Under the pieces are notes generated by a model that saw nothing but the letters and a program-made list of their open reading frames with translations, did no database searches and was not told where the DNA came from. From sequence record KT454806: a DNA stretch of 64,000 nucleotides. The stretch is one strand, 5' to 3'. The translations under genes were made by a program, and so were the position numbers. The DNA comes from Escherichia phage SUSP2. Below, in pieces: positions 1,641 to 34,987 of this stretch; positions within the stretch are counted from its first letter, which is position 1; each line of letters begins with the position of its first letter.

Positions 1641-3107
1641 ATGGCAGAAATTACAGAAACACAAGAAAGCCTACCTCCATTCAGAATGGGTGAGGTTGGG
1701 AGCCTTGGTTTAAAGGTTCGTGGTGGAAGAATCTACGAAGAACCTAGACAAGCTTTAAGGTTCCCAGAAAGTATTAAGACTTTCCAACTGATGATGCGTG
1801 ACCCTGCTGTAGCAGCATCTGTAAACATTATTAAGATGTTTGTTAGAAAAGTCAACTGGAGATTTGTTCCTCCGAAGGGAAAAGAACAAGACCCTAAGAT
1901 GATTGAACGAGCAGACTTCTTTAACTCTCTGATGGATGACATGGAGCATGATTGGGCTGACTTTATTAACTCTGTAATGTCATTCTGTACTTACGGATTC
2001 TGCGTGAATGAGAAAGTTTACAAGAAGCGTCAGGGTAATAAAGGGAAATACCCTTCAAGATACAATGATGGTTTAATTGGTTGGGCTAAACTCCCTATCA
2101 GAAACCAGTCAACTCTTGATAAATGGTATTTTGATTCAGACTATCGAAAAGTAACAGGTGTTAGACAGAATCTGAGAAACGTTTCACACATTGCTGGAGC
2201 TATTAATCTGGCTGAACAGCCACTAACAAGAAAGCTTCCAAGAAGTAAATTCTTGCTGTTCAAATATGATGATGAATACGGTAACCCAGAAGGTCGTTCA
2301 CCATTACTCAATGCTTATGTACCTTGGAAATATAAAGTCCAAATTGAAGAGTATGAAGCAGTTGGTGTTTCCAGAGACTTAGTAGGTATGCCGAAGATTG
2401 GTTTGCCACCTGATTATCTGGATGAGAATGCTGAACCTGAAAAGAAAGCTTTCGTAGAATACTGCAAATCTGTAGTTAATGATATGATTGCAAATGACCG
2501 AGCAGGTTTAATCTGGCCTAGATTTATCGACCCAGAAACTAAAGAGGATATCTTTGAGTTCTCATTAGTATCTAGACAGGGTGCAAAGGCTTACGATACC
2601 GGAGCTATTATTGACCGCTATTCTAAGCAGATTATGATGGCATTTATGTCAGACGTTCTTGCAATGGGTCAGTCAAAATATGGTTCATTCTCTTTAGCAG
2701 ATTCTAAGACAAGTTTACTTGCAATGTCTGTAGACATTCTTCTGAAACAAATCAGAAACGTAATTAACCGTGACCTAGTAGCACAGACTTACGCTCTGAA
2801 TATGTGGGATGATGAAGAACACGTTCAAATCGTTTATGACGACATTGAAACTCCAGACCTTGAAGCTATCGGTGCTTATATTCAGAAGACCGTTGCAGTT
2901 GGTGCTATGGAAGTTGATAAGGAACTGTCTAACAAGCTTAGAGAGCACATTGGCTTACCTCCTGCTGATGAGTCTCAACCTGTGTCTGAAGAATTGTCTC
3001 CGAACACGCAAAGTCGTTCAGGTGATGGTTATAAGACTGCCGGAGAGGGAACTGCGAAGACCCCTTCAGCAAAAGACCCAAGTACAGCGAATAAGGCAAA
3101 TAAATAA
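1641..3107 (+). CDS. Portal protein
   Basis: About 490-aa ORF directly after terL, start ATG at 1641 with AGGTGAG RBS; position and size typical of portal. Confidence 0.65.
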   Translation: MAEITETQESLPPFRMGEVGSLGLKVRGGRIYEEPRQALRFPESIKTFQLMMRDPAVAASVNIIKMFVRKVNWRFVPPKGKEQDPKMIERADFFNSLMDDMEHDWADFINSVMSFCTYGFCVNEKVYKKRQGNKGKYPSRYNDGLIGWAKLPIRNQSTLDKWYFDSDYRKVTGVRQNLRNVSHIAGAINLAEQPLTRKLPRSKFLLFKYDDEYGNPEGRSPLLNAYVPWKYKVQIEEYEAVGVSRDLVGMPKIGLPPDYLDENAEPEKKAFVEYCKSVVNDMIANDRAGLIWPRFIDPETKEDIFEFSLVSRQGAKAYDTGAIIDRYSKQIMMAFMSDVLAMGQSKYGSFSLADSKTSLLAMSVDILLKQIRNVINRDLVAQTYALNMWDDEEHVQIVYDDIETPDLEAIGAYIQKTVAVGAMEVDKELSNKLREHIGLPPADESQPVSEELSPNTQSRSGDGYKTAGEGTAKTPSAKDPSTANKANK

Positions 3108-3607
3108 TGGCTGAAGTTATCTCTATTTCAAATGCTACACGAGTGCATTCGTATAGAGGTGTTCTGGTTATTACTGATACGTTATCTGTAGAGGCTGGCT
3201 CAAGGGTCAGCCTTTCAGGTTATGTAAGTGATGGTGGAACCTCTAACGTTTTCACTATTTGCAGGTTACTTGATGCTCCAATGAACGGAAATTCGTTTAT
3301 TTCAAACAATTGTAGCGAAATTGTTAAAATTCCATTTGACAGTTCATGCCTTTTGGGTGTAAAGTTATATAACTGTGAGAATAAACGTATAAACGTTAAT
3401 AGCGTTGAAGCTGCGTTCATTACCATTGACACAGCATTTCAATCCCCAATGACAGTAAATAAAGAGTCTAACAGACTTGAGTACATTTTTTCACAAAATG
3501 ATTACAAAGTACTTGTCAAAGGTAAAGTATATGATATGATTGTAAATGTGGTGGATGAATCTGGTAACCATTCAACAGTCCTTAAACAGAAAGTAAGGTT
3601 CAATTAA
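3107..3607 (+). CDS. Hypothetical protein, Cys-rich
   Basis: ORF start overlaps portal stop (ATGG); no recognisable motif. Confidence 0.4.
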   Translation: MAEVISISNATRVHSYRGVLVITDTLSVEAGSRVSLSGYVSDGGTSNVFTICRLLDAPMNGNSFISNNCSEIVKIPFDSSCLLGVKLYNCENKRINVNSVEAAFITIDTAFQSPMTVNKESNRLEYIFSQNDYKVLVKGKVYDMIVNVVDESGNHSTVLKQKVRFN

Positions 3608-26297: not shown

Positions 26298-26641
26298 TTG
26301 ATATCCTCATTTTTGAATACGAAAGTGGTATACTTAGTACCATCAACATCAAGCCAAGCACACATTACATCGACACCTTCAAGGTTGCTGTGAAGGTCAC
26401 GAATAAAATGGTCTCGTACTTCTTTTGCACAGGTTGTCTCCAGTTTAATATTGGAGATTGCTGAACCAACAGCCATATAACCTTTTACACGATTCTTCTC
26501 AGAATGCTTAATCAGTCCTTCCTGAACATAATCAGTTAGGTCATCAAGAATGTATTTCCCATACTGCTTCTCAGTTTCAGTAGGTTTCCCGTAGAAGCCA
26601 ATTGCAAAGTTACCTTTGAAGATTGCATTTTCACGTTTCAT
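26282..26641 (-). CDS. Hypothetical protein
   Basis: 119-aa ORF. Confidence 0.45.
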   Translation of the reverse strand: MKRENAIFKGNFAIGFYGKPTETEKQYGKYILDDLTDYVQEGLIKHSEKNRVKGYMAVGSAISNIKLETTCAKEVRDHFIRDLHSNLEGVDVMCAWLDVDGTKYTTFVFKNEDIKCLFP

Positions 26642-26642
26642 A

Positions 26643-26972
26643 TTAATCTGACAGCCTTAAGTTAAAGTTAACACCAAGTTTTTCACAAGCTTTCAACATG
26701 TATTCAAGGGTAATCTTTCCAGTACCGTTGACAATGTTGGAAACACGACTTTGAGAGATATCACAAATCTTTGCGACTTGTGCCTGAGAAAGTTTTCTTT
26801 TCTCAATTTCTTTTTCAAAACGGAATGCAACGAACTCTCTCATTTCGTCTACATCCATTGGACAGATATAACTTGCCATCTCATACTCTCTATCAGCTTC
26901 CCACTTATCTTGTGGAGCATAAGGGTCAAAGACTTCATTCATCTTTCTTCCTCCGTTTTCTGGAAGTGTCAA
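26643..26972 (-). CDS. XRE-family helix-turn-helix transcriptional regulator
   Basis: C-terminal HTH LSQAQVAKICDISQSRVSNIVNG; real start probably an internal Met. Confidence 0.6.
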   Translation of the reverse strand: MTLPENGGRKMNEVFDPYAPQDKWEADREYEMASYICPMDVDEMREFVAFRFEKEIEKRKLSQAQVAKICDISQSRVSNIVNGTGKITLEYMLKACEKLGVNFNLRLSD

Positions 26973-27138
26973 TCAATGAATCTATGTTTGTTGCTCTGAC
27001 GTTTTCACGAGTACCATTGATATGGTCATCCAGTGCTTTATCTACCTCAGAGTCATCTGCACAGTAAACTCGGAAGATAGCATAACCTTCATCGTCAAGC
27101 ACTTCTCCATAGTTCTTCCTGCAATGATTCTTCTTCAT
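26935..27138 (-). CDS. Hypothetical small protein with basic C-terminus
   Basis: 67-aa ORF immediately upstream of HTH regulator. Confidence 0.35.
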   Translation of the reverse strand: MKKNHCRKNYGEVLDDEGYAIFRVYCADDSEVDKALDDHINGTRENVRATNIDSLIDTSRKRRKKDE

Positions 27139-27139
27139 A

Positions 27140-27520
27140 TCATAGACCTACGCAGGTACGCTTTTCAACAAAATAGTGAACACCTTTGAAAGTTTCATCC
27201 ATCATTTCACTTTCAGTATCACTGACCTTCTCAATGCTTTTGGAATCAAGCAAGTCAACATCCTGAGTGACCATAGCATCAGAAACAGCTTCGTAGTAGT
27301 CTGCCATCACACGATATTTGTAATCAGTAATACGGTCAGACATTTCTATGACAGTTGGAGAAGATAACGGCTTAGTTAACTCCCCAGCATCTGTTACGAC
27401 TTTACGAACAATCTGACAAGCCTCCATAGAGACCTTGCTAAAGTCTGCTTCAGGCATCTTCATAGCTGATGCACCAAAACTCAGAGTTGCCAGAATGACA
27501 CCTACCATAAGCTTTTTCAT
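27140..27520 (-). CDS. Secreted or periplasmic protein with signal peptide
   Basis: N-terminal MKKLMVGVILATLSFGASA signal peptide; GAGGTGAG RBS; strong promoter upstream. Confidence 0.5.
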   Translation of the reverse strand: MKKLMVGVILATLSFGASAMKMPEADFSKVSMEACQIVRKVVTDAGELTKPLSSPTVIEMSDRITDYKYRVMADYYEAVSDAMVTQDVDLLDSKSIEKVSDTESEMMDETFKGVHYFVEKRTCVGL

Positions 27521-27559
27521 AACTCACCTCATATAAAATTTTGTATACATTCAAGTATA

Positions 27560-27588
27560 AAAATAAGCTATAACACCTGACTTGTCAA
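27560..27588 (-). promoter_or_regulatory. Sigma70-like promoter (TTGACA-N17-TATTTT) inside a 13-bp inverted repeat
   Basis: -35 TTGACA = reverse complement of 27583-27588, -10 TATTTT = reverse complement of 27560-27565; inverted repeat arms AAATAAGCTATAA at 27561-27573 and 27595-27607. Confidence 0.55.
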
Positions 27589-27643
27589 CAGATTTTATAG
27601 CTTATTTGGCAGATTTTTTATAAGGCTACTGCCATCCTTCCAT

Positions 27644-27697
27644 ACCTCACCGCACCCTACTACACCCCCACCTTACCGAACCGCGCCATACCAAACA
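27644..27697 (+). repeat. Phased pentamer array A1, about 11 ACCNN units
   Basis: ACC trinucleotide recurs every 5 nt (27644, 27649, 27654, ...), one 6-nt step; C-rich, G-poor on + strand. Confidence 0.8.
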
Positions 27698-27734
27698 TCA
27701 CTTAAAAACCCTTTTCAAAGACTCTTAAGTGATG
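27696..27734 (+). other. Conserved hairpin motif H1 (CATCACTTAA-19 nt-TTAAGTGATG)
   Basis: Perfect 10-bp inverted repeat with 19-nt loop; near-identical copy at 29210-29248. Confidence 0.7.
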
Positions 27735-27765
27735 TAATCGAATTTTAATGTAGCTCCGATTAACT

Positions 27766-27816
27766 ACCCATACCTCACCTCACCTAACCTCACATTACCA
27801 AACCGCATACTACCTC
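27766..27816 (+). repeat. Phased pentamer array A2, about 10 ACCNN units
   Basis: ACC at 5-nt phase from 27772; preceded by conserved leader TAGCTCCGATTAACTACCC. Confidence 0.75.
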
Positions 27817-27844
27817 ATTAAAAGACCCTGTTTAAAGGCCTTTT

Positions 27845-27868
27845 AAAAAGGAGCCTCCGAAGAGGCTA
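27845..27868 (-). terminator. Rho-independent terminator of the two-gene operon
   Basis: On - strand: AGCCTC-TTCG-GAGGCT hairpin followed by CCTTTTT. Confidence 0.65.
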
Positions 27869-27878
27869 CCTAGTCAAC

Positions 27879-28319
27879 TTAGAAAGGTTTTCTACGTTGC
27901 TTGTTAATGTTAGCTTTCATAGCGGCTAAATGGTTTTGCTGTTCAATCAATCGTGAACGTTCTTGATGACTAAGTGCCATAGTGTTCACATTCTCAATTG
28001 CTTGAGTCGCTTGCTTTAAGGCGCGACCAATCTTACCAGACATTTTACGTTTTGCAATAGTTGCTTGATGTTTTGGTTCAACTACACGATAACCCACACC
28101 CATTGAAGCAACCAGATAAATCTTTTCTTCTTTAAGAAGCTTTTCGATAAACTTCTCAAGTCGGTTTAATCGTGTCAGAGAATAAGCCTTCATCTCATCT
28201 TCGTACTTAACAATATCACCCTGATAAGTTGGCTTCACAATACCTAAGAAGGTATCCATTTCAGAGTGTGATACAGTATCACCGTAACTAAACTTTGCTG
28301 CTAATGCTTTTGTATTCAT
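27879..28319 (-). CDS. Hypothetical protein, basic C-terminus (second gene of repeat-flanked operon)
   Basis: 146-aa ORF, stop 1 nt after upstream gene start region; no recognisable motif. Confidence 0.5.
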   Translation of the reverse strand: MNTKALAAKFSYGDTVSHSEMDTFLGIVKPTYQGDIVKYEDEMKAYSLTRLNRLEKFIEKLLKEEKIYLVASMGVGYRVVEPKHQATIAKRKMSGKIGRALKQATQAIENVNTMALSHQERSRLIEQQNHLAAMKANINKQRRKPF

Positions 28320-28321
28320 AA

Positions 28322-28927
<606 letters not shown>

Positions 28928-29021
28928 TTAGTTGATTGTTAAGTTGTTTGTAAAGAACCCTCAACAGAAGACTCTTTAGAAACTTGGTAGATTTTTAACG
29001 TGGCTACTACCATCCACCCAT

Positions 29022-29081
29022 ACCTTACCAAACCCTACCAGACCGTACCATGCCCAACCCTACTACACCAGACCTTACCTC
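29022..29081 (+). repeat. Phased pentamer array B1, 12 ACCNN units
   Basis: ACC (two degenerate: GCC, ACT) at 29022+5k for k=0..11; preceded by leader GGCTACTACCATCCACCC. Confidence 0.8.
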
Positions 29082-29118
29082 ATTAAAAGACCCTCTTAAA
29101 GACCTTTTAAAAAGGTAA

Positions 29119-29142
29119 GTCTCATTTTCATGTAGCTGAGAC
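29119..29142 (-). other. Internal hairpin in operon leader (possible attenuator)
   Basis: On - strand: GTCTCA-12 nt-TGAGAC followed 5 nt later by TTTTT. Confidence 0.35.
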
Positions 29143-29153
29143 TAACTACCCAT

Positions 29154-29210
29154 ACCAAACCTTACAATACCTAGCCTTACCACACCGAACCAAACCACAC
29201 CCAACCGAAC
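29154..29210 (+). repeat. Phased pentamer array B2, 12 ACCNN units
   Basis: ACC-like trinucleotide at 29154+5k; preceded by leader TGTAGCTGAGACTAACTACCC. Confidence 0.8.
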
Positions 29211-29248
29211 ATCACTTAAAAACCCTTTTCAAAGACCCTTAAGTGATG
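29210..29248 (+). other. Conserved hairpin motif H1, second copy
   Basis: CATCACTTAA-19 nt-TTAAGTGATG; differs from 27696-27734 copy at one loop position. Confidence 0.7.
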
Positions 29249-29278
29249 CTGGTGAGTACCCGTTGGTTTATGCTGCTC

Positions 29279-29306
29279 AGTATACTCACCAAATTTTCTA
29301 TGTCAA
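29279..29306 (-). promoter_or_regulatory. Sigma70-like promoter (TTGACA-N16-TATACT) driving the repeat-containing leader and two-gene operon
   Basis: -35 TTGACA = reverse complement of 29301-29306, -10 TATACT = reverse complement of 29279-29284. Confidence 0.55.
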
Positions 29307-29491
29307 CAATTTTCTAATAAAGTTTTATAAAGATTTTGCTTAACGACCCGCCTCACATGCCTATGCTCTTTCTTAATAAAGAGTGACCTCTTCTTGACAG
29401 AGCGCCTATTCTTGTAGGTATTACTAGGATACTTATCATGAACCGGACAACAACTACCCGGATTTGTAAACTTGATAATCTCTCTTTTCAC
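29303..29491 (-). CDS. Small highly basic protein
   Basis: 62-aa Lys/Arg-rich ORF; start overlaps ligase stop (coupling). Confidence 0.4.
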   Translation of the reverse strand: MKREIIKFTNPGSCCPVHDKYPSNTYKNRRSVKKRSLFIKKEHRHVRRVVKQNLYKTLLENC

Positions 29492-30615
29492 TATTCATAA
29501 TCCCTAATAACGAGACCAACAGGGAACTGTAAAGACCCCTTACGAGTCATCTTCTGGAACTGAACCGTCAAAGGTTTCCCGATAAACTCTTCAGGATGTT
29601 CAGCAAGATACTGTTTCTTTTCATGGGTAGTTTTCCATGAAACATCTACAAAGACGTTAGGAAGAGTCTCTACAACGAACTTACCATGACCACGTTTATC
29701 AGTCTTCACACCAGTTACTTTAAATTCTTCCGTGTGCATCTTCTTATGCTTAATCAGGAAGTAAGAACGGTGACCACACTCATAGAAAGATTCTGCTGAG
29801 ATGGAACGGTACATTGCCCCTTCAAACTTCAGCTTAACCCAATTGTCATGGGCTTTGTCGAACTCTTCCCAAGAGTTAACACGGATAGTTTGCACAGGTA
29901 CAACCCTACAAGCATCACCGAGTTCAACAATTGGAGAGTTATCAATGATTTCACGGCGCTCAGGCCAAGTTTTAGTTTTGTCACAGATATCATACCAGTA
30001 GAATTTAAGTAGGTGACGGTCTGGATTGTCAGCATTCTTAATCATAGACACGATATCTTCTAAATCCCAACCATGAGCATAGATTTCACCATCAAAATCT
30101 TGAACTTGTGGGTGGCATTTAAGCATCAGAAGCAAGTCTGGAATTAACTCTTCAGGTACGTTGTACACAGTATTTTCACGGGAGTAAGCTGTGAAGTTCA
30201 CTGAGTCAGCATCTCTTGATATACGGCAACGAACACCATCAAGCTTCGGTTGAGCATCAGCAGGGAACTTCAAATACTTGGCATGACTGACCTTTGCAGC
30301 ATCTTGTGCAAGTTGTACACCAACCTTCTCAGTGTTCTCTGCTTCAGATTTTGTGTAAGCATAACCTTTACGGTCAACCTGTTTCTTGTACTTAGCAGCA
30401 ACTTCAAAGAGAGCTTGCTGTTCAGCATTACGCTCATTCTTTTTACCGATGTTTTTCGGTTCTGCTGTGTACTCTTCAAACATCATCTTGCCATTTTCTT
30501 TGCCATACGTGGTAACAACTTTGTCACCTACAGCGACACATGACCAGACATTAAAAGAGCCATCTTTATTTTGTTTGTACAGAATTGTCATCATCAATCT
30601 CCAGAATGATACCAA
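29491..30615 (-). CDS. ATP-dependent DNA ligase
   Basis: Adenylation motif I KLDGVR; size about 374 aa like T7-type ligases. Confidence 0.75.
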   Translation of the reverse strand: MVSFWRLMMTILYKQNKDGSFNVWSCVAVGDKVVTTYGKENGKMMFEEYTAEPKNIGKKNERNAEQQALFEVAAKYKKQVDRKGYAYTKSEAENTEKVGVQLAQDAAKVSHAKYLKFPADAQPKLDGVRCRISRDADSVNFTAYSRENTVYNVPEELIPDLLLMLKCHPQVQDFDGEIYAHGWDLEDIVSMIKNADNPDRHLLKFYWYDICDKTKTWPERREIIDNSPIVELGDACRVVPVQTIRVNSWEEFDKAHDNWVKLKFEGAMYRSISAESFYECGHRSYFLIKHKKMHTEEFKVTGVKTDKRGHGKFVVETLPNVFVDVSWKTTHEKKQYLAEHPEEFIGKPLTVQFQKMTRKGSLQFPVGLVIRDYE

Positions 30616-34730: not shown

Positions 34731-34987
34731 TTTTACTCCCTCTCAAAATCATTGACTCAATACATTACTGCAAAAAGTTTCAAAAAGCAAGTTGACAATT
34801 CACTTGACAAGGTGTTAATCTTTGCGAAGTGGGTTTTAACTTAAAAGACTCCCTTTACAGATTAACTATACAGTTTCTTTAAAACCCTTAAAAGATTTTT
34901 AATAGCTTTTAAGAAGCTTTAAAGTTATACGTATAGAATACGTAAAGAAAACAGATTAAGTTTAATAGGTACTTAAAAGAGGGCATT
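34731..34987. promoter_or_regulatory. Divergent control region between DNA polymerase and rightward early genes
   Basis: Tandem TTGACA boxes (34792-34797, 34804-34809), palindromic cluster TATACGTATAGAATACGTA (34926-34944), AT-rich. Confidence 0.4.

Follow-up and report, generated by a model that had tools for sequence, protein, structure and literature searches.

VIPR is an RNA-guided DNA-binding system of phages in which a guide, the vrRNA, is coated by copies of the small RAMP-like protein Vipr. Each vrRNA is made up of 9-16 YNNGG repeats with a hypervariable NN dinucleotide, followed by a conserved 3' tail with a pseudoknot, and the target is read by the NN dinucleotides with every third DNA base skipped. 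Escherichia phage SUSP1 is the model phage of type II VIPR and encodes the accessory protein Vap beside vipr. The SUSP1 vrRNAs are expressed and Vipr-bound, according to small-RNA sequencing and pull-down, and the mature guide has a size of about 100 nucleotides (nt) or below 100 nt, corresponding to 12 repeats and a tail of about 40 nt. Its 3' pseudoknot was reported from covariation and cryo-electron microscopy (cryo-EM), and the companion cryo-EM preprint shows each repeat occupied by one Vipr protomer and the 3' end capped by the pseudoknot (bioRxiv 10.64898/2026.04.26.720920 / 10.64898/2026.04.26.720927). Here, we analyzed a 64,000-nt stretch of Escherichia phage SUSP2 (KT454806), referred to below as the window, which carries a 39-nt hairpin, H1, at 27696-27734 and again at 29210-29248. 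H1 probably serves as a processing signal that marks where guides are cut from a longer vrRNA transcript.

The window derives from a Felix O1-like myovirus (Ounavirinae), and its nearest record is SUSP1, with 94% identity over the VIPR region. The locus is a type II VIPR system of the SUSP1 clade, and H1 is one of its RNA elements, read on the minus strand, which is the coding strand for the genes between about 23.5 and 34.9 kb, including DNA polymerase, ligase, dihydrofolate reductase and thymidylate synthase. The protein sequences of Vipr and its neighbor are identical to those of SUSP1, and the vipr product matches PDB chain 36pp_D ("SUSP1 Vipr protein") at E = 2e-130; Pfam and PHROGs return only "unknown function" for the vipr and vap1 products. 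As in SUSP1, the system fills the slot that separates the DNA ligase gene from the next operon, the genes have GGY/NN vrRNAs with a 3' pseudoknot tail on either side, and the same satellite-phage family is targeted under the 1-nt-skip rule. In contrast to SUSP1, which has one vrRNA upstream and three downstream, the window has two on each side, and its guides differ from those of all records in the phage collection, where the two intergenic regions have their best full-length matches at about 87-89% identity. Based on the protein identity and an independent test of 1-nt-skip targeting, the locus is a working-looking member of the SUSP1 clade with its own guide set. VIPR is already known, with its model phage as the closest relative of the window. 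New are the geometry of the hairpins, their strand, the presence of 3-4 paralogous types and their fixed position, as well as the proposal that they act as processing punctuation of type II vrRNA arrays. Neither the flanking hairpins nor the maturation of type II vrRNAs is described in the text of either VIPR preprint.

A preliminary description of this DNA, made from the letters alone, had reported H1 as a conserved motif occurring twice. Both copies match its pattern with 0 mismatches, differ at a single position (27722 T, 29236 C) and abut an ACCNN array on their low-coordinate side, all as described, and none of 100 dinucleotide-preserving shuffles matches the pattern. There is no third copy in the window. 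The related loci form a comparison set of 36 loci with 115 units, collected from GenBank and IMG/VR. H1 is kept in all 36 and is thus under selection, as had been suspected. The ACCNN arrays had been taken without their context: they represent the GGY/NN tracts of the vrRNAs, which are accompanied by 3-4 paralogous hairpins, H1 among them.

The 10-base-pair (bp) stem with a 19-nt loop, as first drawn, exists on the plus strand. On the transcribed minus strand, the supposed loop itself pairs via G.U wobbles, giving H1 a stem of about 18 bp with a loop of 3-5 nt (in copy b, at least 20 bp with G.U pairs included). What appeared to be a large conserved recognition loop is therefore the upper part of a long minus-strand RNA stem with conserved G.U pairs. 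Both copies fold more stably on this strand (Table 1), and the one difference between them becomes A-U versus G.U, which leaves the structure unchanged because both combinations pair.

H1 shares its core with two further hairpins of the locus, H2 and H3. More specifically, all three contain GUCUU paired with AGGGU (G.U, U.G, C-G, U.G, U-A) above a lower stem that is different in each type: CAUCACUUAA / UUAAGUGAUG in H1, CCUUUUUAAAAG / CUUUUAAUGAGG in H2, where it is a perfect 12-bp stem in phage wV8, and a third, GTTTCTAAAGA/TCTTTACAAAC, also given as GUUUCUAAAGA / UCUUUACAAAC, in H3. H1, H2 and H3 are thus paralogous hairpins of about 17-19 bp, with distinct Watson-Crick lower stems that carry compensatory changes and a G.U-rich upper stem. 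The minus-strand RNA folds better than the plus-strand RNA in 65 of 66 distinct H1, H2 and H3 sequences. For H1, the mean folding energy is -16.4 kcal/mol on the minus strand versus -8.8 kcal/mol on the plus strand, with about 17 bp including about four G.U pairs. In an alignment of 31 sequences, 91.3% of the cells of the 18-bp structure are paired on the minus strand versus 70.9% on the plus strand, and the aligned stems hold 123 G.U cells versus 10 A.C cells. The covariation score of the hairpin is 0.331, compared with 0.202 for shuffled alignments, none of 500 shuffles scored as high, and five pairs changed on both sides. Furthermore, relatives carry two H1 alleles with a compensated C-G versus U-A change at the apical pair, and some of them (L002 ~3100-3160, L008/L010 and L020, among others) have a longer H1 in which the stem is intact despite a 22-nt apical insertion. 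This insertion forms a small stem-loop of its own and reads TATAAT on the plus strand. A scan of 27300-29700 against Rfam 15 returned only chance-level snoRNA matches (E > 1) and no RNA family or ribozyme.

The same strand asymmetry bears on the idea that the motif acts as double-stranded DNA, either as an operator for the nearby helix-turn-helix protein or for Vap1, or as a recombination sequence by which the vipr cassette is mobilized. At the DNA level, H1 does form an inverted repeat, a Cro/CI-type helix-turn-helix gene lies downstream (26643-26942), the vipr-vap1 cassette is present or absent between repeat copies while the number of units varies from 1 to 5, and Vap proteins are predicted DNA binders (bioRxiv 10.64898/2026.04.26.720920 / 10.64898/2026.04.26.720927). 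However, the arms of the three hairpin types are unrelated and yet each self-complementary, which a single DNA binder would not need, and the core is not a DNA palindrome: it pairs as RNA, via G.U, on one strand only. The changes in copy number can be accounted for by array recombination without any role of the hairpin. A role as a DNA site thus appears very improbable.

The preliminary description had also set H1 apart from generic terminators and had noted that no T-tract adjoins it. Both points hold, since a terminator-like U-run is absent on both strands, the terminator scan does not call H1, and its stem is rich in A+U and G.U; the only terminator-like site within 26500-30500 is 27867-27852. 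The lowest probability of all is given to H1 as a generic stabilizer, in the form of a 5' hairpin that protects against RNase E, or as a terminator of the upstream guide. While the stem is stable and about 24 nt separate copy b from the inferred 5' start of the P1 transcript, the missing U-run, the internal copies located away from any 5' end and the apparent absence of the hairpin from mature vrRNAs all argue against it.

The arrangement of the hairpins around the guides is constant over the 36 loci and 115 units. Either H1 or H2 is found 5' of every array, and each type of tail leads into its own type of hairpin. Every repeat tract starts at the 3' foot of a hairpin, every tail reaches a hairpin within 0-2 nt, and the pairing with natural targets begins at the first NN past the 3' foot. 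On the minus strand of the window, the order is P1, H1, vrRNA-1 (tail hB), H2, vrRNA-2 (hD), H3, vipr, vap1 and terminator, followed by H2, vrRNA-3 (hC), H1, vrRNA-4 (hA) and a further long hairpin with promoter P2 (Table 1). The position of P1 and its similarity to the sigma-70 consensus suggest that it is the start of a vrRNA-vipr-vap1 transcript, and wherever a related locus extends far enough, P1 adjoins its last H1.

Table 1. Features of the VIPR locus in the window, listed in minus-strand order.
Feature	Coordinates	Strand	Evidence
P1, predicted sigma-70-type promoter (TTGACA, 16 nt, TATACT), fires toward H1 copy b	29279..29306	-	11/12 consensus positions
H1 copy b, directly 5' of vrRNA-1, ~24 nt downstream of inferred P1 start	29210..29248	-	Exact motif match; -21.3 kcal/mol, z = -6.2 (plus strand -13.1)
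vrRNA-1 repeat tract, GGY/NN pentamers	29152..29209	-	5-nt periodicity; NN code matches satellite-phage contig
vrRNA-1 3' tail, type hB	29118..29151	-	H-type pseudoknot, stems GTAG/CTAC + AGTCTCA/TGAGACT
H2 copy b, between vrRNA-1 tail and vrRNA-2	29078..29115	-	GUCUU/AGGGU core as in H1; different complementary lower stem
vrRNA-2 repeat tract	29020..29077	-	Periodicity; NN code matches E. coli satellite tape-measure gene
vrRNA-2 3' tail, type hD	28986..29019	-	Pseudoknot, stems GTGG/CCAC + GGTAG/CTACC
H3, between vrRNA-2 tail and vipr ribosome-binding site	28946..28983	-	-13.6 kcal/mol (plus strand -8.9)
vipr, gene of RAMP-like vrRNA-coating protein	28322..28909	-	195/195 residues identical to SUSP1 protein
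vap1, accessory gene	27879..28319	-	146/146 residues identical to SUSP1 neighbor; name inferred from preprint gene order
Intrinsic-terminator-like hairpin and U-run after vap1; U-run overlaps 5' arm of H2 copy a	27846..27867	-	Terminator scan
H2 copy a, 5' of vrRNA-3	27813..27851	-	-20.3 kcal/mol (plus strand -11.1), 51-nt window including part of terminator hairpin
vrRNA-3 repeat tract, short, ~9 units	27770..27812	-	Periodicity
vrRNA-3 3' tail, type hC	27736..27769	-	Pseudoknot, stems GTAG/CTAC + AATCG(G)/(Y)CGATT
H1 copy a, between vrRNA-3 tail and vrRNA-4	27696..27734	-	Exact motif match; -17.9 kcal/mol, z = -5.3 (plus strand -11.7)
vrRNA-4 repeat tract, one irregular 6-nt unit	27642..27695	-	Periodicity
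vrRNA-4 3' tail, type hA	27608..27641	-	Pseudoknot, stems AAGG/CCTT + GGCAG/CTGCC
Long hairpin directly after tail hA, P2 -35 hexamer in loop	27561..27607	-	19-nt inverted repeat; P2 match 10/12; -17.8 kcal/mol

This arrangement, together with the size of the mature guide, points to the role of H1. Because the roughly 100 nt reported for a mature SUSP1 vrRNA are already filled by 12 repeats and a tail of about 40 nt, there is no room for another 39 nt, and H1 would not be part of the guide. As an element outside the guide, it is therefore inferred to be a processing or boundary signal that is removed. We consider processing the better explanation, and the preliminary description, which had offered a processing site as one possibility, may be right in this respect. 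In the mechanism we propose, the hairpins would act as double-stranded RNA signals for cutting the primary transcript, which would release each guide and separate the guides from the vipr mRNA, and the ends would then be finished by trimming back to the Vipr-protected RNA. The weakest point of this proposal concerns which nuclease makes the cut. The first candidate is the double-strand-specific RNase III of the host, because the hairpins offer a stem of 18-23 bp in a transcript of the host polymerase; while it would be the most likely enzyme, this assignment is tentative and has a considerably greater chance of being wrong than right. Compared with the length of an RNase III site of about two helical turns, the stems measure 17-19 bp including about four G.U pairs, or 20-23 bp with flanking pairs.

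Several observations weigh against a processing signal of this kind. With 17-19 bp, several of them G.U pairs, the stems are rather short for an E. coli RNase III substrate, and 20-23 bp is attained only when flanking pairs are included. The conserved G.U-rich core suggests specific recognition, which simple RNase III cleavage would not need. For the hairpin after P1, there is no preceding guide that would have to be separated, and phage Medea1 (see below) has only a 12-bp hairpin about 17 nt upstream of its array. Since most of the hairpin covariation occurs between the three paralogous types, the number of independent covariation events is small. The silence of both preprints on the hairpins and on type II maturation has to be added here, as does the fact that other VIPR loci do without hairpins of this kind and use staggered arrays, ribozymes or single vrRNAs instead (bioRxiv 10.64898/2026.04.26.720920 / 10.64898/2026.04.26.720927).

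The fixed position of the hairpins could also be explained by a boundary or insulator function, in which the hairpin stops the Vipr filament as it grows from the 3' pseudoknot toward the 5' end, so that a single repeat tract is covered. The hairpin would additionally keep the G-rich tract from mispairing with its neighbors, and the ends would be made by non-specific host nucleases that trim unprotected RNA. This fits the absence of a spacer between the hairpin and the first repeat, where target pairing begins, as well as the cryo-EM intermediates, in which protomers are resolved 3'-to-5' from the pseudoknot (bioRxiv 10.64898/2026.04.26.720920 / 10.64898/2026.04.26.720927). Furthermore, because the number of units varies from 8 to 18 per array, the 5' limit must be set by something other than a fixed protein count. 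However, a boundary leaves H3 unexplained, which precedes the vipr mRNA and no repeat tract, and it gives no reason for the conserved G.U-rich core. A stable hairpin should also resist trimming, and yet it is absent from the RNAs of about 100 nt. We consider a boundary function unlikely and retain the processing signal as the preferred reading.

More distant relatives show other arrangements. Pseudomonas phage Medea1 (Vipr 43% identical; L040 2994-3133) has a single array downstream of a vap-like gene, and its 12-bp hairpin upstream of the array contains G.U pairs; a 5' hairpin may thus be a wider feature of type II loci. In Mycobacterium phage LittleE (Vipr 36% identical; L042 1665-3456), the vipr homologue is flanked by five GGY/NN arrays, which are separated by elements in which an acceptor-like stem encloses a hairpin resembling a tRNA T-arm (GGTTCGAGTCC). 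In these separators, ARAGORN finds no tRNA and Rfam no match. They may be a different punctuation device, possibly a substrate of RNase P or RNase Z, or the tail of that clade.

The guides themselves were identified from their repeat tracts and tails. The window contains four ACCNN arrays only, all with ACC on the plus strand, at approximately the tract positions of Table 1, and all are confined to the two intergenic regions that bracket the vipr-vap1 cassette. Across 770 units from 68 arrays, the plus-strand pentamer reads N, N, R (A 88%, G 12%), C (97%) and C/A/T (78/13/8%), so that the constrained positions are R in 100%, C in 97% and C/A/T in 100% of the units; the minus-strand reading is GGY followed by two near-random bases. 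The length of the arrays is quantized in 5-nt steps, with 8-18 units, and equals 3 modulo 5 in 68 of 83 arrays, the exceptions arising mostly from the boundary calls made here. The tract of vrRNA-4 has an extra C near 27666-27667 and measures 54 nt instead of 53, and this guide may be damaged. In the pseudoknot of the tails, 91.5% of the cells are paired over the four tail types, compared with 29-41% in slid controls, and in 9 of 11 pairs both partners changed; one pair of an hC stem is G.U, G-C or A-U depending on the phage. The loop lengths are compatible with a classical H-type pseudoknot on the minus strand only.

Targeting was tested by comparing the published 1-nt-skip rule with other skip lengths and with shuffled unit orders. 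Through a homologue of the phage baseplate gene, a chromosomal satellite of about 12 kb was found in 474 of 5,426 complete E. coli genomes. The island (e.g. L036 5700-17300) contains two recombinases, a tape-measure gene and the baseplate gene homologous to that of the phage, and its integration sites vary, lying between yciI and tonB, within a DUF72 gene or within mdtG. The code of vrRNA-2 agrees with the tape-measure gene of L036 at 21 of 22 NN nt with a 1-nt skip only, while no other skip length exceeds 17 of 24. For vrRNA-1, a pattern scan of metagenomes recovered a contig of the satellite family (L045) that matches over 10 consecutive units, at 20 of 22 nt and likewise with a 1-nt skip only, versus a shuffled-order maximum of 17; two other matches in the same scan are probably due to chance. 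At least 90% NN match on four such satellites, again with a 1-nt skip only, was obtained for three of the four SUSP1 vrRNAs and for the vrRNA-2 of the window. Among the relatives, 34 of 80 distinct arrays exceed their shuffled-order controls on these satellites, nine of them perfectly. No target was found for vrRNA-3 and vrRNA-4 in five satellite sequences, and an exact-pattern scan of species-representative genomes gave no match for vrRNA-1. A search for satellite-borne vrRNAs revealed no copies of the hairpin-plus-tail module in the 5,426 E. coli genomes, and the four satellite loci contain no GGY arrays. In the target of vrRNA-2 in the satellite of E. coli strain PAR (L036 13219-13253), the skipped base is codon position 1, while the base usually skipped is the wobble position (bioRxiv 10.64898/2026.04.26.720920 / 10.64898/2026.04.26.720927).

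GGY/NN arrays also occur in phages that lack vipr. Among Felix O1-like genomes, 229 records carry such arrays and 116 encode Vipr at 90% identity or more, so that about half of the array-bearing genomes are without the gene. Felix O1 itself has no vipr-vap1 cassette, and its ligase gene is separated by one repeat unit from the gene that follows; in relatives, the number of units per locus ranges from 1 to 5. In the complete genome of BPS17W1, tblastn detects no Vipr or Vap1 at E values up to 10, although two hairpin-flanked arrays are present (L043/L044 = NC_042097.1 43949-44165). The R-C-H pattern is kept in 95.1% of the units of such orphan arrays versus 95.4% in the others, and with a 1-nt skip orphan arrays match the satellite at 18 of 18 nt in BPS17W1 and at 23 of 24 in SP116. 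Other loci with orphan guides are those of Felix O1 (L004 3020-3145), L011-L017, L019, L022, L024, L030 and L033. The text of the VIPR preprints does not mention orphan guides.

These phages are relevant to the question of whether Vipr or Vap1 reads the hairpins, with a RAMP-family protein cutting at the hairpin base as Cas6 does in CRISPR arrays. The start of the vrRNA at the 3' base of the stem corresponds to the geometry of Cas6 cleavage, and the core of all hairpin types includes GGY-like triplets (GGU in AGGGU and GGUC). Vipr is a RAMP homologue, and functional guides are obtained in E. coli from vrRNA1 and vipr alone; however, the preprints report neither nuclease activity of Vipr nor contact with the hairpin, and the elaborations of CRISPR RAMP proteins are described as missing from Vipr (bioRxiv 10.64898/2026.04.26.720920 / 10.64898/2026.04.26.720927). 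The retention of the same hairpins in Vipr-less phages also speaks against it, and overall we regard cleavage by Vipr or Vap1 as improbable. To our knowledge, Vipr has no Cas6-like activity. The broader version of this idea, that the hairpins are a maturation signal read by VIPR proteins, with Vipr acting like Cas6 at the stem base or the G.U-rich core serving as a docking site, and that the tail-plus-hairpin module is a functional forerunner of the CRISPR repeat, is speculative and likewise improbable. A linked possibility is that Vipr-less phages of the Felix O1 type keep hairpin-flanked guides for loading onto Vipr supplied in trans by a co-infecting phage.

A number of other readings of the locus were tried and rejected. 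A CRISPR array does not fit, as the repeats are degenerate pentamers, the constant modules are of four types and the neighboring proteins have no cas-like Pfam domain. An R-loop replication origin, suggested by the G-rich non-template strand downstream of a strong promoter in a replication gene cluster, was dropped because of the strict GGY/NN pattern, the pseudoknot and the match to the literature. Attenuation of the TRAP-like or gp32-like kind, with triplets spaced by 5 nt, was rejected as the number of units is not fixed (8-18) and the partner is a Vipr filament. For a plus-strand transcript with a Rho-utilization site or a boxA-like CTCTTA in the "loop", no plus-strand promoter was found, and the G.U pattern and the pseudoknot geometry favor the minus strand. 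A genome terminus or packaging site was discarded, since the terminal repeats of relatives are located elsewhere.

In addition to the guides and their hairpins, we noted several features in and around the locus. The long hairpin after tail hA is possibly a fourth flanking type, a tentative assignment. An inverted repeat, GGTGAGTA (29251-29258) / TACTCACC (29283-29290), embraces P1, spanning the -10 hexamer and the inferred start, and may be an operator. The sequence GCTGGTGA at 29248-29255 is one base off the Chi sequence of E. coli. Between the ligase gene and P1, an open reading frame of 62 amino acids (29303-29491) matches phrog_5428, a phage family of unknown function, at E = 9e-29, and the insert at this position varies among relatives. 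At 34888-34949, where the minus-strand replication genes and the following plus-strand block diverge, the intergenic region contains three overlapping 11-nt tandem repeats and could be a regulatory or origin region.

VIPR systems have been put forward both as an ancestor of the CRISPR effector complexes and as a programmable DNA-binding tool of very small size, and the cutting of a multi-guide transcript into single guides has not yet been described for type II, the model type. The G.U-rich hairpin of about 18 bp is a concrete candidate for the signal involved, and it suggests a design rule for synthetic multi-guide arrays, namely to retain the hairpin between a tail and the next repeat tract. 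The repeats had previously been annotated only as "DR_4" or "repeat_region", and the present assignment accounts for these features and for the long intergenic regions that look "empty" in more than 200 genomes of Felix O1-like phages.

Structured punctuation has precedents in other systems. Type I and type V VIPR loci carry hammerhead ribozymes at the same position between vrRNAs (fig. S19; bioRxiv 10.64898/2026.04.26.720920 / 10.64898/2026.04.26.720927). By analogy, these would support a punctuation role of the hairpins, as in both cases a structured element lies between vrRNAs and is absent from the mature guide. The ribozymes cleave themselves, whereas H1 is a plain stem-loop without a Rfam ribozyme match and would therefore need a protein nuclease. 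RNase III cuts hairpins of about two turns that separate early genes in phage T7 (R1.1 and others) and that flank the rRNAs of E. coli. The T7 sites resemble H1 in being intercistronic hairpins on phage RNA transcribed by the host polymerase, and a host enzyme cuts them to release separate RNAs, as proposed here for H1. They differ in having a characteristic internal loop and one cut, while H1 has a nearly continuous stem with tandem G.U pairs and is only a candidate site. Finally, CRISPR loci, with Cas6 repeat hairpins or RNase III acting on tracrRNA:pre-crRNA, share with the VIPR locus a precursor in which a constant structured element alternates with variable guides, a guide that starts at the 3' base of the stem and a protein of the RAMP lineage. 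In contrast to CRISPR, the VIPR locus has no cas genes and no regular repeat-spacer array, its variable part is itself a pentamer repeat, and its constant part is split between a retained pseudoknot tail and a hairpin that appears to be removed.

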